42,116 nt of DNA from the sequence record MN850623.1; one strand, written 5' to 3'. The stretch comes from Escherichia phage sortsyn. The position numbers were made by a program, and so were the translations under genes. This document shows, in pieces, positions 23 through 38,091 of the stretch. The notes beneath the pieces are model-generated. The model saw nothing but the letters and a program-made list of their open reading frames with translations, had not been told where the DNA came from and searched no databases. Position 1 is the first letter of the stretch, and each line of letters begins with the position of its first letter.

Positions 23-2125
23 ATGATCTCCCAAGCCGTGACCGATGCCGGGAAGGGCGTCGGGCTGGTGGATGAAAGCACCCAAGCGCCAACCATCACG
101 CCTGGGGGGATCCCTGGTCTGGCCCCTACTGACAAATACGCGCAGATCGGGACCCTGATCGGCGATATGCTCGCGCCGCTACCTGGCCCGCGTAAGGCTC
201 AGGCGGCGACCGAACTCCTCGGACTGGTTCGTGAAGCGCCGGACGCGACCAGCTTCGCGACCCGTCTCGCCGATATGACCCAGAACTGGATCGCGGCTCC
301 GGCGGCTCGTGCTGTGCCTGGCGCGATCGCCGCTGGTCGTGGGGACCCGGAGGAGACGCTGACGAATATCGCACTAGCGCCCGCTGGCGAGGCTGTGGGC
401 CGCGCTGTTATCGGTGGCGCTGGTAGGCTGTGGAATGCGCTCAGGGGCGGCGAGGGGGCCGCAGGTGGCGCAGCAGACGCAGCAGCGGACGCAACCCGAT
501 CCACCCAGGCGACCGAGGCGGGAATCTCCGACGCTGTGGCTCGTGATGCGAGCAAGTTCCGACTGACCCCCGATCAGAATGTGCAAGGCGCGAACGGTGA
601 AACCCTCCGCGCTTCTGACGAGATGATCGACCTCGCGAACATGGCGGACGTGGACAAAAAGCTGATGAAAACCGCCCGCGATCTGGGGATGGAGGATCAA
701 CTGACCCCGGCGGCTTATGCGCGTGATACGCAGTTTAGGACCACGCTCCAGCAGCTTGTAAGCCGGAAAAGTTCCAACCTGGAAACTCAGCAGATTAACG
801 GGATCTCTCGCTTAGGTGAGAAGGCCGACGAGCTGATCGACAGCATGAGCAGCATGAACGCGAACACGCTCGATCAGGCATTCAGCCAGCGCACGAAGGC
901 AGTGATCGACGACCTCGCGGCCCAGGCTGACGACGTTTACACGAAGATCGGGCAGAAGCTACCGAAGAACGCCCAGATCGACGCAAACAACACGCTTAAC
1001 CACCTGTGGGCGAAAGCGGACGTAGACGGGCTGGGAACGCTGGACCCTGTGGAGCGTAAGGCGCTGGACTGGCTCCAGCCTGTAAACGACCAGATGGGGC
1101 CACCGACTTATTCCCGTCTGGATAAACTCCGCCAGCAGGTCGGCGCGGCGATCAGCAAGAAAGAGGGGCCGTTTAAGGACTCCGACCGGGCGGCGCTTAA
1201 ACAGCTTTACGCACGACTGACCGAGGACCAGGAAGCGGTCGCGGCTCGCTACGGGGCGGCGGACGACTGGGCCGTGGGTAAACAGCTTGTTAAGCGTCGT
1301 AAGGACCTGGAGACGCTGGCGCGTGATGCGCTGGGGAAAGATCTCGACGGCTCGATCTCCGGCAAGGTCCAGAACGCGATCTTAAACCTGGGCAAAAAAG
1401 GCGGCAGCGCTCGCGACTGGGACAAGCTGATGGCGGCAACCCCGGAGAGCATCAAACAGGATGTAGTCGCTAATGCGCTGGAGCGTACCCTGGGCGCACG
1501 TAGCGCCCGCGATACCTTCGCGATCCCCGGCTTCGTGGACTGGTACAAGACCGCCCAGGCTAACGGGACGTTAGGAAACGTCATGCAGCACCTACCGCGC
1601 CAGCAGCGCCAGCGCCTCATGCAGATCTACCGCGTGGCGAACGGGATCGACCGGGCGAAACGCTTTACCACGACGACGGGATCGATCTCCGACTTCGTGA
1701 AGCGATTCGACGATCCGGGCGCTGGTGGCGTGTTGTCCAAGCTGTACGGGGCGGCGGGATGGTTAGGGAAACACGTCGCAGCATACGCGGCAGCAGGTCC
1801 GGCAGGTAACGCAGCAGTAGCCGCAGCGTCGGCAGCGGCCCGATCTCGTGTTCCGCGATCTGTTCTTGCGGACAACGTGCTTTCTGGTGAAAACTTCAAT
1901 AAACTGTTACAAGCCGCAGCCGCGCAGAGTTCCGGGAAGCTGACCCCAGCGGGCCGGACGTTCGTCCGAGAGGCCGAGGAAGCGGCGGCAAACTCGCCGG
2001 AGTGGAAAGCCTTGATCGAGGCCATGACCCCGGAGGAGAAAGCAGCCGTTAACCGCGCCGGGATCGTCGGATTCCTTTCCGGTACTGGCGGGCAAGCGGC
2101 AGCAAGCGACCAGCAGCAACAATAA
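23..2125 (+). CDS. Virion ejection/DNA-transfer protein, C-terminal portion (gp16-like position); 5'-partial, frame open back to base 2
   Basis: Long Ala/Gly/Gln-rich ORF directly upstream of the tailspike; reading frame is open from window base 2 with first ATG at 23; continues in frame from the ORF that runs off the 3' end of the window. Confidence 0.55.
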   Translation: MISQAVTDAGKGVGLVDESTQAPTITPGGIPGLAPTDKYAQIGTLIGDMLAPLPGPRKAQAATELLGLVREAPDATSFATRLADMTQNWIAAPAARAVPGAIAAGRGDPEETLTNIALAPAGEAVGRAVIGGAGRLWNALRGGEGAAGGAADAAADATRSTQATEAGISDAVARDASKFRLTPDQNVQGANGETLRASDEMIDLANMADVDKKLMKTARDLGMEDQLTPAAYARDTQFRTTLQQLVSRKSSNLETQQINGISRLGEKADELIDSMSSMNANTLDQAFSQRTKAVIDDLAAQADDVYTKIGQKLPKNAQIDANNTLNHLWAKADVDGLGTLDPVERKALDWLQPVNDQMGPPTYSRLDKLRQQVGAAISKKEGPFKDSDRAALKQLYARLTEDQEAVAARYGAADDWAVGKQLVKRRKDLETLARDALGKDLDGSISGKVQNAILNLGKKGGSARDWDKLMAATPESIKQDVVANALERTLGARSARDTFAIPGFVDWYKTAQANGTLGNVMQHLPRQQRQRLMQIYRVANGIDRAKRFTTTTGSISDFVKRFDDPGAGGVLSKLYGAAGWLGKHVAAYAAAGPAGNAAVAAASAAARSRVPRSVLADNVLSGENFNKLLQAAAAQSSGKLTPAGRTFVREAEEAAANSPEWKALIEAMTPEEKAAVNRAGIVGFLSGTGGQAAASDQQQQ

Positions 2126-34237: not shown

Positions 34238-35497
34238 ATGGCTAACCAGTTAGCGAAGGATCTCGAAATTGCTTTCGAGGAATATGTGGAGAGCTTCGAG
34301 GCGTCTTGCGTCGTGTCGAAGAACGCGGCGAAGTTCCGCCCCGGTGATCAGACGATGCAACGCGCCGGGGACGTGATCCACCGTCCGCAGCGTTACCACG
34401 CTGATATCATCGAAGGTCTGGATCTGACCGGACAAGCCGGGACCGATATCGTCCAGCGCCTCGTCCCTTCCGTGTTCAAAGAACCTCAGAACGTTCTCTT
34501 TAAGCTGGACGCTCGCGAAATGCGCGACCCAGAGCAGCGTAAAGAGATGGGCCGAGCAGCGGGCCAGCGCGTAGCCGCGAAGATCGACTCCGATCTGATC
34601 GCTACCGCAGCGCGTTACGCGACCCACGTCGCCACCACTGGCGACAACAGCACCGGAACGCTAGGCGGCGACCTGTGGGACGCAGCAGCGCAGATCGGCG
34701 CACAAATGACCGCGATCGGCATCCCGCAGGGTACGAATAAAAAAGCCTTCTGGAACTCGTTCTCAAACAAGTTCCTGGCGAAAGAACTCGGATCCCGCGC
34801 ATATGCTCAGGGCGCAACCCTGACCGCATACGAAAAGGCGCAGATCCCGGACGTGGCTCGCTTCATGTCCTTTGAGACGGATATTTCCGCACGTCTGGGC
34901 GCTGGCTCCGCAGCAGCGATCACCCTGGCAGCGGCTCCGGCTCACAAAGTCGAAGCGAAAGACGCGAACGATCTCCCGGTCGATAACCGCCAGGGCGTGA
35001 TCACCGTGTCCGCAGCCCACGGCCTGGTCGCTGGTGATGCCTTCACCATCGCGGGCGTGAACATGGTCCATATGATCAGCAAGGACACCACGGACACCCC
35101 TCAAGTGTTCCGCGTCCTGGGCGTGTCTGGTAACAACATCACGATCACCCCTCAGATCCTGCCGCCGGACAACGCCGATCTGCCGTCTCGCCCTTACGCG
35201 AACGTGGACGCGAACGCCGCCAACGGCGCGGAACTGACCGTTATCAACAACACGGCATCTAATGCTAACATCCTGTGGGCCGACGGCTCCGTGGAACTGA
35301 TGTTCGGTAATCTGGCGTTCCCTACTGGTCAAGGTCCGCAAGTAATGCGAGCCACCACCAAACAGGGCGCGACTCTGATCATGTCCTACGCGTTCGATCA
35401 CATCGCGGGCGTGACCACCTGCCGTTACACCACGCTTTACGGTTGTTCCGTCCTCGTGCCGGAATACGTGGGCCTGGTACTGCCTAACCAGCAGTAA
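34238..35497 (+). CDS. Major capsid (coat) protein, P22 gp5-like
   Basis: Position after scaffold, size 419 aa, local similarity to P22 coat as recalled (FTIAGVNMV, ILWADGSVELMFGNLAFPTGQ). Confidence 0.9.
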   Translation: MANQLAKDLEIAFEEYVESFEASCVVSKNAAKFRPGDQTMQRAGDVIHRPQRYHADIIEGLDLTGQAGTDIVQRLVPSVFKEPQNVLFKLDAREMRDPEQRKEMGRAAGQRVAAKIDSDLIATAARYATHVATTGDNSTGTLGGDLWDAAAQIGAQMTAIGIPQGTNKKAFWNSFSNKFLAKELGSRAYAQGATLTAYEKAQIPDVARFMSFETDISARLGAGSAAAITLAAAPAHKVEAKDANDLPVDNRQGVITVSAAHGLVAGDAFTIAGVNMVHMISKDTTDTPQVFRVLGVSGNNITITPQILPPDNADLPSRPYANVDANAANGAELTVINNTASNANILWADGSVELMFGNLAFPTGQGPQVMRATTKQGATLIMSYAFDHIAGVTTCRYTTLYGCSVLVPEYVGLVLPNQQ

Positions 35498-35513
35498 GAC
35501 GCGCAGCAATACA

Positions 35514-35586: not shown

Positions 35587-36117
35587 ATGAACCAGCGTTC
35601 CTATTCAAAAACCGCCATCGCCGCAGTTTTAACCGTAATGCTTTACTCCCGCCCCGCTATTCTGGGACGCGAACGCATCACCGGGCTGGAAACCATGCGC
35701 CGCCCGCACACTGACGGCCCCTACGTCCGCGCCATCTTCCCGGAGCAAGAAGCCGCCGAGCGTCTGGAGTCTGGCTTCTGGGTGGATCATCCGAACAAAC
35801 TCCCGGCGCTGGATGCCGCGATCGCCGAGGCAGCGGAGAAGGAGGCCAAAAAGGACAAGCAGGAGGCCGACGACGAAGAAGCCGCCCGCCTGAAAGAGAA
35901 GCAGGACGCAGAGGCCCAAAATAAGGCCCCAGAATCGACCGCTACGGCCTCCGAGCAAAAAGACGCACCGAAGGCCGACGAAGTGAAGAACGAGCCAGAG
36001 AGCGGCGCAGAGGCTCAGGAATCCACCCAGGAAGCGAAGGCCGACGAATCCAAGCCGAAAGACGGCGAGAAGGTAGACGGCGCGAAAGTTCCGACCGACA
36101 AGAAGGCTAAGAAATAA
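35587..36117 (+). CDS. Hypothetical protein with Lys/Glu/Ala-rich C-terminal tail
   Basis: 176-aa ORF between coat and gp4-like gene, GAGGA SD. Confidence 0.5.
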   Translation: MNQRSYSKTAIAAVLTVMLYSRPAILGRERITGLETMRRPHTDGPYVRAIFPEQEAAERLESGFWVDHPNKLPALDAAIAEAAEKEAKKDKQEADDEEAARLKEKQDAEAQNKAPESTATASEQKDAPKADEVKNEPESGAEAQESTQEAKADESKPKDGEKVDGAKVPTDKKAKK

Positions 36118-36119
36118 TT

Positions 36120-36575
36120 ATGGCGACTTTGCAGAAGATCCAGATCGTTAACCTGGCGTTACGCCGTGGCGGGCTGGCGTCGTCTGCTGTTCTCATGATG
36201 CCAGATCCCCAGCAGTTAGCCGACGCGCTGGAGGATCTGGAGGGCTTAATGGCTACGGTGATTCAGGACGGCGTGGCCTTACCCTACATCTTCACGACCA
36301 ACGCCGACGGCGTACCGGACGGGAACGAGGACTCCGGGCTGGACCTGTGGACCAAAGAGGGGATCGCCCTCAAGCTGGCCCAGCGGATCCTCCTGGATAT
36401 GCAGCGCGATTTAACGCCTGAAATGAACGCAGTTTTAAAGGAGCAATGGGACATTATTAAGATCCAGTTCTACACGGTCCCAAGCCTGAAACAGCGTAAC
36501 GATATGCCTACGGGGGCGGGTAATCGTCCGTTCTTCCCGGAGGACCGTTTCTACTATGACGGGAGCGACAAATGA
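36120..36575 (+). CDS. Head-to-tail adaptor / tail accessory factor (P22 gp4-like)
   Basis: LEDLEGLMATVIQDG and RNDMPTGAGNRPF parallel P22 gp4 DDLEAMMAEWYQDG and SRMPTGSGNSF as recalled. Confidence 0.85.
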   Translation: MATLQKIQIVNLALRRGGLASSAVLMMPDPQQLADALEDLEGLMATVIQDGVALPYIFTTNADGVPDGNEDSGLDLWTKEGIALKLAQRILLDMQRDLTPEMNAVLKEQWDIIKIQFYTVPSLKQRNDMPTGAGNRPFFPEDRFYYDGSDK

Positions 36576-36652
36576 AACCGACCAAAGGCAAAAAGAAGCC
36601 GCAGGGCAGCAAGAAGCCGAAGAAACCAGCTAAGGCTAAAGGGGGCTACTGA
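36572..36652 (+). CDS. Possible 26-aa lysine-rich micro-ORF (MKPTKGKKKPQGSKKPKKPAKAKGGY)
   Basis: Start overlaps the gp4-like stop (ATGA) and its stop overlaps the gp10-like start (TGATG). Confidence 0.3.
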   Translation: MKPTKGKKKPQGSKKPKKPAKAKGGY

Positions 36653-38091
36653 TGCGCAACCCAGAACGCGGGCAGGAGATCACGATCCCGCTGTTATATG
36701 GCGATGGTCGCCGATCGACGACGCTCGACTGGTCAACCCGGCTACCGGAGAACATGCTGGCGGTCGCCCGCACCATTAAGGGCGGTAACGGCTATATGCG
36801 CATGATGCCGGGGATCGTGAAGGACAAGGACGTGGCGGGCGTCTCTCGCGGCGCAGACTGGAACACGGTCAAAAATGCGACTTACCGCGTGATGGGTGAT
36901 CAGCTGTACCTCTCCGGGGAGTCCGTGGCGACCATCTCCGGCGTGGACCGTACTCCTATGGCACATAGCCGGAACCGCGTCGCCATCGTGTCCCAGAACT
37001 CCATGATCATGATCGGCTACGACGGGAGCCGGAACAGCTTCTCCAACTGGACCGGGGAAGATGATCCGACGTATGACTGGGGCGACATTAACGACGTGTG
37101 CCACCTCCGCCAGCGCTTTATCTTCTCCACGAAGAACTCGGACACCTTCTGGATCTCCGACCTGCTGGACGAGACGAAGCCAGACAAGACCGCCCCGGCG
37201 TACCGCGCCGAAACCATGCCGGACGGCATCGTGGCGATCAGGGCGTGGCGTGATTATGTCGTTTGTTTTGGGACCGCCTCGATCGAGTTCTTCGGCCTGA
37301 CCGGGGACGATCAGAACGTCTACGCCAGCCAGCCGTCCTACACCGTCGAAGCCGGGACGATCGGGCGTGAAAGTGTCTGCGAGTATATGGAGACTTTCGC
37401 CTTTCTTACGTCGCCATTCTCCGGCGATTTGACGATCGCCATGATGAACCCCGGCGGCGGTACGTGGAGCGAGATCGCCAGCGCGGAGATCAAGAAGATT
37501 CTGGCGGACTATGACGTGGCAGACCTCGCCGACGTCCGTCTGGAGTCGCTCAGTTTTGAGACTCACAAACTTCTGATCGTCCACTTGCCGGACAAAACGC
37601 TGGTTTACGATCACCCAGTAAGCCAGGCGCAGGGCGTCCCGGTCTGGTCGTACATTAAGACGGGCATCAACGGGATCGGACCTTACCGCGCCGTGGACTT
37701 CGTGAACGAGGGCCGCGTGATCACCTGTGGCGACAAGCTGGATCCGTATCTGGGGAAAATGGATAACACCACGTCGGCCCAGTATGGCGAGGACCAGGAG
37801 ATCGTCCTGTATACGCCGCTATTGTGGGCCGAGAATGCGATCCTTGCAGACTTCCGCATGGATGCCAGCACCGGGGGCGACTCCGTAGCGAGCCGGATCT
37901 GGCTCTCCGCGACCGAGGACGGGATCGTGTACGGGCAGGAGAAAAGCATCGCCTACAATACCCCGTATCAGTGGCTACAGAACGTTATCTTACGCGTAGT
38001 AGGCCGAGTCCGTTCCGCTATCGGCTTTAAAATCCGCACCGTAGGCGCAACCCCGGCGACTCTCTCGCGGGCGCGTGTCCGTGTGACCTAA
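36652..38091 (+). CDS. Tail hub protein (P22 gp10-like)
   Basis: GVSRG...NA.YRV, AWRDYVVCFGTASIEFFGLTG, ITCGDK, WLSATEDGIVYG, IGFKIR segments colinear with P22 gp10 as recalled. Confidence 0.9.
   Translation: MRNPERGQEITIPLLYGDGRRSTTLDWSTRLPENMLAVARTIKGGNGYMRMMPGIVKDKDVAGVSRGADWNTVKNATYRVMGDQLYLSGESVATISGVDRTPMAHSRNRVAIVSQNSMIMIGYDGSRNSFSNWTGEDDPTYDWGDINDVCHLRQRFIFSTKNSDTFWISDLLDETKPDKTAPAYRAETMPDGIVAIRAWRDYVVCFGTASIEFFGLTGDDQNVYASQPSYTVEAGTIGRESVCEYMETFAFLTSPFSGDLTIAMMNPGGGTWSEIASAEIKKILADYDVADLADVRLESLSFETHKLLIVHLPDKTLVYDHPVSQAQGVPVWSYIKTGINGIGPYRAVDFVNEGRVITCGDKLDPYLGKMDNTTSAQYGEDQEIVLYTPLLWAENAILADFRMDASTGGDSVASRIWLSATEDGIVYGQEKSIAYNTPYQWLQNVILRVVGRVRSAIGFKIRTVGATPATLSRARVRVT

Follow-up and report, generated by a model that had tools for sequence, protein, structure and literature searches.

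What lies between the gp4-like and gp10-like tail genes of Escherichia phage sortsyn, and is it a gene at all? The window, by which we mean the whole 42,116-nucleotide stretch of DNA analysed here, carries at this point a reading frame of 26 codons, with the product MKPTKGKKKPQGSKKPKKPAKAKGGY. The initial annotation had placed this micro-ORF exactly between the two tail genes with an overlap at either end, and both its position and the two overlaps are exact in the sequence (Table 1). The micro-ORF begins with the ATG at 36572, which lies on the gp4 stop codon TGA (36573-75) in an ATGA overlap (36572-36575), and it ends with a TGA at 36650-36652, whose A is shared with the gp10 ATG (36652-54) in a TGATG overlap (36650-36654). 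The gp4 gene, the micro-ORF and gp10 occupy three different reading frames. From the comparisons described below, we favour with moderate confidence the reading that the micro-ORF is a translated, dispensable relay micro-cistron at the Murrayvirus-type gp4/gp10 boundary, and that it represents a short form of a phrog_2423-type protein.

The identity of the flanking genes, which had been called gp4-like and gp10-like from the letters of the window, is confirmed by Pfam matches on both sides (Table 1). The N-terminus of gp10, MRNPERGQ, agrees with that of relatives, and coat, scaffold, needle and ejection genes surround the gp4/gp10 pair in P22 order. Phage IME_EC2 (Murrayvirus EC2) is 99.6% identical to the window over an 801-nt query across the site and 99.0% identical over ~6.4 kb around it. 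Its counterpart of the gp4-like gene is annotated as ‘head-tail adaptor Ad3’, and its RefSeq record has no CDS annotated in the 76-nt gap between gp4 and gp10. By their titles and abstracts, publications on IME_EC2 and Murrayvirus are reports of isolation and genome surveys. Between the coat gene and gp4, the window also holds a 176-aa ORF (35587..36117, + strand) without a Pfam match; its C-terminal half is E/K/A/D-rich low-complexity sequence that ends in KKAKK before the stop, and it is listed as ‘hypothetical’ in IME_EC2.

Table 1. Features at the gp4/gp10 junction of the window.
Feature	Position	Strand	Basis
gp4-like head-tail adaptor gene, 151 aa	36120..36575	+	PF11650 P22_Tail-4, E 8e-23
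SD-like GGGAG, 6 nt 5' of the micro-ORF ATG	36561..36565	+	Duplex with the 16S 3' end, -6.6 kcal/mol
Micro-ORF, 26 codons	36572..36652	+	Colinear similarity to the 33-aa ORF of L033 (z 6.2) and the 54-aa ORF of L036 (z 5.3)
80-nt segment in place of ‘GG’ of the ORF-less allele	36575..36654	+	Alignments with ST231, KMB41 and L021
SD site for gp10, AAAGGGGG, 6 nt before the gp10 ATG	36637..36645	+	-10.7 kcal/mol
gp10-like tail hub / head closure gene, 479 aa	36652..38091	+	PF11134 Phage_stabilise, E 2.7e-132

The peptide encoded by the micro-ORF has a mass of 2.8 kDa, a charge of about +10.5 and a pI of 10.7, with 11 lysines and 4 prolines. It is devoid of acidic residues, and its hydrophobic residues are confined to the start methionine, two alanines and the C-terminal tyrosine. 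The open frame is unsurprising in itself, since the insert that contains it is T-poor (only 5 T per 80 nt); at this composition, we estimate the chance of meeting no stop over 25 codons at ~50%. This estimate lends some weight to the reading of the micro-ORF as a chance ORF or an artefact, that is a non-coding insertion or a sequencing or assembly error that stays open by luck. What makes the micro-ORF more than chance is comparative, namely the colinear ORFs, the same junction architecture and the frame-specific similarity found in two diverged relatives.

Carriers of the insert and a non-carrier were sought among contigs that encode exactly the window’s gp4 protein. The insert is identical in five genomes, the window, IME_EC2 and the contigs L017, L019 and L020, whose flanks are 96.9%, 95.7% and 98.1% identical to the window, respectively. 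The carriers are 1-4% different from the window over the flanking DNA that was compared. An assembly artefact can be dismissed, since the micro-ORF is present in five assemblies that are not the same elsewhere. Within the insert, no site varies among the five carriers, compared with 9 variable sites in the 456 nt of gp4; about 1.6 variable sites would be expected in the insert (P ~0.2 for zero, by our estimate), and since local diversity is only ~2%, the identity of the insert says nothing on constraint. Two of the carriers contain divergent tracts elsewhere. L019 has a strongly divergent tract inside gp10 (window-equivalent 36804..37090) and is otherwise 96-99% identical, and L017 has a similar tract at 35479..35513. 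The two tracts suggest that the structural genes of this clade have undergone mosaic recombination.

The contig L021 is a near-identical sibling that does not carry the micro-ORF. Its gp4 protein is identical to that of the window and its flanks are 98.3-99.0% identical, and its junction has the ORF-less form AAATGAGGAAC, which we call ancestral. In ST231 and KMB41, gp4 and gp10 likewise overlap directly, AAATGAGGAACCCAGAA, whereas the window has 78 extra nt. The exchange of ‘GG’ for the 80-nt segment, a net gain of 78 nt, thus represents a presence/absence polymorphism. The micro-ORF is absent from the Murrayvirus genomes ST231, KMB41, Lumpael and sortregn in GenBank, from Sortsnevirus and Skarpretter (Sortsne, IME279, sortkaff and Skarpretter, L027) and from the metagenomic relatives L010, L012/L028, L026, L029, L032, L037 and L038. 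In most relatives, gp4 and gp10 are directly coupled through ATGA, TAATG or a 9-nt spacer. Beyond the five identical carriers, just two of the examined relatives, L033 and L036, have an ORF at the junction. Carriers can be paired with close non-carriers (the window with L021, L033 with L032, and L036 with ST231/L010), as would be expected if gain, loss or exchange of an accessory gene took place at a module boundary. As close siblings and most relatives live without it, the micro-ORF is dispensable, and since it is often absent from siblings, its role can be accessory at most.

We searched several collections for a source of the 78 nt. Apart from IME_EC2, no match was obtained in GenBank phages (blastn and tblastn), in complete E. 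coli genomes (blastn), in IMG/VR (peptide-degenerate DNA patterns) or in one genome per GTDB species (peptide-degenerate DNA pattern). This negative outcome is in line with the insert being non-coding DNA that is open by luck. An intragenomic duplication was rejected as the source, as the best match within the window is at chance level and is reached by 40 of 100 shuffles. A metagenome scan with gp4 retrieved only an already known contig, and exact look-ups of the window’s gp10, orf176 and gp14 gave no match.

Comparison with the ORF-less junctions reveals how the insert affects the start of gp10. The ORF-less P22-like junctions of ST231, KMB41, Lumpael, Sortsne, Skarpretter and L021 share the flanking genes, the ATG and the SD site with the window. 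There, gp10 begins directly at the ATG (ATGAGG AAC CCA, MRNP). In the window, the micro-ORF begins at this codon, and gp10 begins at another ATG located 80 nt downstream. The micro-ORF ATG is thus the very codon that serves as the gp10 start in ST231, KMB41 and L021. The 20 nt upstream of it are identical in the window and L021, with a predicted duplex of -6.6 kcal/mol in both. In the window, the SD site for gp10 is formed by the last codons of the micro-ORF, AAA GGG GGC (Lys-Gly-Gly). It reaches -10.7 kcal/mol, compared with -6.6 at the ORF-less (ancestral) gp10 site, and is similar to the TAAGGGGG site ahead of gp10 in Sortsne.

Based on this arrangement, ribosomes that finish gp4, or that bind at GGGAG, would translate the 26 codons and terminate at the TGA inside TGATG. 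Next, gp10 would be initiated either by re-initiation or by fresh ribosome binding. The micro-ORF could thus act as a translational relay from gp4 to gp10 that resets gp10 initiation onto a stronger SD site. Translational coupling via overlapping stop and start codons is well known from the junctions of the E. coli trp operon. The junction described here is similar in that stop/start overlaps occur at both ends of the micro-ORF and that the downstream SD site lies within the last codons of the ORF. It differs in that a whole 26-codon cistron is interposed between two structural genes. A change of the micro-ORF ATG to ATA (AAATGAAA to AAATAAAA) would remove the start of the micro-ORF and retain a gp4 stop.

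Other explanations for the junction were considered and rejected. The gp10 frame contains in-frame TAA stops at 36631-33 and 36637-39, which exclude both an N-terminal extension of gp10 and a -1 frameshift at GGCAAAAAG into the gp10 frame. An RNA element at the micro-ORF was discarded (fold z +0.64, no Rfam match, no tRNA). Matches to promoters and terminators in the region are at chance level, with four terminator-like sites found and 2.7±1.8 expected. Antisense to the micro-ORF, a terminator-like hairpin, GCTGCCCTGCGGC, followed by a T-run is located at 36598..36610 on the - strand.

The relatives L033 and L036 were found via a search for gp10 homologues, followed by inspection of contigs of the closest cluster representatives. 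In L033, gp4 and gp10 are 48% and 80% identical to those of the window, and the junction ORF encodes 33 aa, MKTPAKKKCPTNDPKKPDGIRGKKKPTKSKGGY. As in the window, it overlaps the gp4 stop through ATGA and the gp10 start through TGATG. In L036, gp4 and gp10 are 93% and 79% identical to the window, and the junction ORF encodes 54 aa (P0103). This longer ORF has its own SD site 3' of the gp4 stop, TAAGGGGGACAAGATG, and only the 3' overlap is present (TAATG with the gp10 ATG). The equivalents of the SD site ahead of gp10 are AAAGGTGGG in L033 and AAAGGGGG in L036. Neither the 26-aa nor the 33-aa ORF is called in any record examined.

The 54-aa gene of L036 starts behind a TAAGGGGG-N5-6-ATG site (1324..1339), the same as that which starts gp10 in L037 (site at 1489..1503) and Sortsne, and AAAGGGGG-N6-ATG recurs at the 3' end of the gene. 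Two similar translation start sites therefore flank the cassette, and its gain or loss could be mediated by them. A further lysine-rich ORF was observed in an unrelated AT-rich phage (IMGVR_UViG_3300025832_000042, L035 5061..5156, - strand). It encodes 31 aa, MKYGGKTRKGGLCSGKKKPTKTKKTKGKGGY, and a TGATG overlap links its stop to the start of a phrog_6437 gene of 91 aa, ahead of the large terminase. Its pattern GKKKPTK.K...KGGY, followed by the stop, resembles the micro-ORF of L033. We did not retain it as a homologue, since it originates from a pattern scan, has a different gene context and gives no match to the phrog_2423-type profile; the resemblance is possibly due to chance.

The peptides encoded at the three junctions are more similar than their composition would predict. 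Global protein alignment of the window with L033 scores 78, compared with 40.4±7.1 for shuffled sequences (0 of 2000 reach 78), and alignment with L036 scores 69, compared with 38.6±6.7 (1 of 2000 reaches 69). L033 and L036 align with a score of 54.5, which is reached by 14 of 2000 shuffles. On the nucleotide level, the local alignment of the window with L036 scores 33, compared with 18.5±3.4 for shuffled sequences (6 of 1000 reach 33). When the window, L033 and L036 are compared frame by frame, the ORF frame yields z values of 6.2, 5.3 and 3.5, and the other two frames yield 1.1-3.4.

Because the sequence is of low complexity, alignments of the junction ORFs are ambiguous, and some co-optimal nucleotide alignments of the window with L033 contain out-of-phase stretches. 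A protein-guided dN/dS comparison (pS 0.89 vs pN 0.27) was set aside, as the nucleotide-guided alignment places the gaps differently; the frame control is the sounder test. In nucleotide-guided alignments of the window with L036, all gaps are in frame, and mismatches at codon positions 1, 2 and 3 number 4, 3 and 7. The in-phase optimal alignments of the window with L033 contain 4, 3 and 8. Together, the frame control, the in-frame gaps and the lean towards third positions speak for coding constraint at these ORFs. Conservation of the K-G-G-Y codons could reflect the gp10 SD site and its spacing instead of the peptide.

These comparisons also bear on the possibility of a chance ORF or an artefact. 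Five independent assemblies that are 1-4% different elsewhere carry the insert, and L033 and L036 possess positional homologues with frame-specific similarity and with the overlaps of the window (the 5' one not in L036). A chance origin, to which we assign a very small probability, is thus essentially excluded. The proposal of the initial annotation that the micro-ORF is a translated gene missed by gene callers probably holds, given the reuse of the start site seen in L021, the positional homologues and the frame-specific similarity. The conservation in relatives that it had named as a check is found in part: L033 and L036 have positional homologues whose similarity is strongest in the ORF frame, but conservation is not broad, with the ORF absent from L021, ST231, KMB41 and most others.

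The 54-aa ORF of L036 may connect the micro-ORF to a protein family. It matches phrog_2423 over its full length (E 1.7e-20) and has no match in Pfam or NCBIfam. The phrog_2423-type family is large, with 2068 protein clusters at E ≤ 0.001 in a large public protein collection, and it occurs in 58 diverse records of GenBank phages, for example in Enterobacter phage phiEap-2 (YP_009191432.1) and as gp21 of Pseudomonas phage O4. Its members are 42-59 aa long; a core of 38 residues is strongly conserved, and the poly-lysine tail that follows it is variable. The genes are often found in head-morphogenesis modules. In Burkholderia phage BcepB1A, a conserved 35-residue core forms the N-terminus of the annotated head maturation protease gp26 (L040 3001..4737), and the same fusion is present in Acinetobacter phage P919 (L041 3001..4338). 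These fusions hint that the phrog_2423-type domain may act inside the procapsid.

Alphafold predicts a two-helix hairpin for the phrog_2423-type protein (residues 9-21 and 26-36 of the 54-aa member), followed by a disordered tail, with a mean pLDDT of 77; the model has no significant fold match in the PDB. A profile search of PDB sequences gave TAL-effector repeats (QVVAIASNGGGK) with E-values to 3e-4 for the whole sequence. No single stretch passes, and we consider this match probably spurious. Eight family members of 42-47 aa (P0115, P0120, P0125, P0140, P0186, P0197, P0207 and P0212) bear JGI names such as ‘preprotein translocase subunit SecD’ and ‘ribonucleotide monophosphatase NagD’, which are inapplicable because these proteins are only 42-47 aa long.

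Aligned with the L036 protein, the window peptide is colinear, with a basic N-terminus (MKPTKGKKK), a KPQG turn, an SK and the tail KKPAK.KGGY. The L036 member occupies the very same position between gp4 and gp10, and its stop overlaps the gp10 ATG. The poly-lysine tail is common to both forms; that of the window reads KKPKKPAKAKGGY, and other members end in KKKKPVKKKGY or KKKKPKKKGY. The two forms differ in length (26 aa in the window, 42-59 in the family), and in the colinear alignment the window peptide has gaps where the two conserved helices lie. A profile of 120 family members gives -3.2 bits for the window’s 26-aa peptide, compared with 95 bits for L036, and no match for the 33-aa peptide. 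Moreover, neither short peptide matches PHROGs at E up to 10. Lacking both a PHROGs and a profile match, the two peptides are not filed as phrog_2423 members. The micro-ORF is not an orphan novelty and resembles a short phrog_2423-family protein without the helices. We infer that the window ORF descends from the long form, a descent that is not proven because the window peptide fails the phrog_2423 profile. The ancestor would have been a phrog_2423-type two-helix protein, both helices of which were removed by in-frame deletions.

The loss of the core raises the main rival to a maintained relay cistron, namely that the micro-ORF is a decaying phrog_2423-type remnant whose two-helix core has been deleted and which is open only to bring ribosomes to gp10 in register. 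Its peptide would then be a functionless by-product on the way to full deletion, as in L021 and ST231. Such decay would account for the missing core and the failure to match the family profile, as well as for the lack of the ORF in most relatives, a near-identical sibling among them. In agreement with decay, conservation is highest at the K-G-G-Y codons, where the gp10 SD site and its spacing lie, and a T-poor sequence easily stays open. However, the window and L033 have the same short architecture even though their gp4 and gp10 proteins are only 48% and 80% identical. The short form has thus been kept through a long divergence and not deleted. The much stronger similarity in the ORF frame is, in addition, not predicted by a pure nucleotide or SD constraint. 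We therefore regard decay as rather unlikely, and continue to favour a translated relay micro-cistron.

Whether the peptide itself has an activity is a separate matter. Judged from composition only, the product would be a disordered 2.8-kDa polycation, and the most plausible activity, if any, would be non-specific electrostatic binding of nucleic acids. The initial annotation had suggested a small DNA-binding or virion peptide, an idea that takes only the charge into account. In a stronger version of this idea, the peptide itself would be selected as a virion-associated or DNA/RNA-binding polycation that acts near the portal-gp4-gp10 channel or on packaged DNA, in the manner of microvirus protein J. 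The charge of about +10.5, the lack of acidic residues and the C-terminal aromatic residue fit such a role, and the basic blocks are conserved in a frame-specific manner across three lineages. Genes of the parent family usually belong to head-morphogenesis modules, in some cases as a fusion with the head maturation protease, and poly-lysine followed by GY is also the C-terminus of some long-form members from unrelated contexts. On the other hand, the ORF is dispensable in siblings, and the peptide has no Pfam match at E up to 10, which also covers any microvirus J family contained in that library. In our assessment, selection on the peptide as a polycation is improbable.

Protein J of microviruses, for example phiX174, is a small basic DNA-binding protein. 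Both peptides are very small and strongly basic, lack acidic residues and have an aromatic residue near the C-terminus, and a Pfam scan (E up to 10) finds no sequence relationship between them. Protein J comes from a ssDNA phage with a different capsid. As a working model for a polycation accompanying the packaged DNA, protein J is plausible. As a long shot, the lysine-rich segments alone could be the working part of phrog_2423, and the 26-aa peptide a minimised yet functional polycation, the tailed-phage counterpart of protein J. If true, a polycation would be made in step with the tail-hub proteins and enter the head or the portal-gp4-gp10 channel, where the minimised form would hold in place, or neutralise, the DNA end that is packaged last.

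Flanking genes, coupling motifs and parent family all belong to known kinds. New are the unannotated short form between gp4 and gp10 of P22-like phages, which lacks the conserved domain of its family, and the takeover of the gp10 start site by the micro-ORF. The micro-ORF adds an unannotated gene to the IME_EC2-type phages, and gene-caller length cut-offs hide ORFs of this size. It represents a case in which an accessory gene at a module boundary takes the start of an essential downstream gene and supplies a replacement at its own 3' end. Natural comparisons are available in the window and IME_EC2 vs L021, in L033 vs L032 and in L036 vs ST231, and such carrier pairs could show whether the widespread phrog_2423 family has an effect, be it through the whole protein or through the poly-lysine tail only. 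As siblings live without the ORF, its effect on phage biology is probably small. With a function that is so far inferred, the micro-ORF may serve to illustrate how micro-genes stay hidden and how genes turn over at module boundaries.
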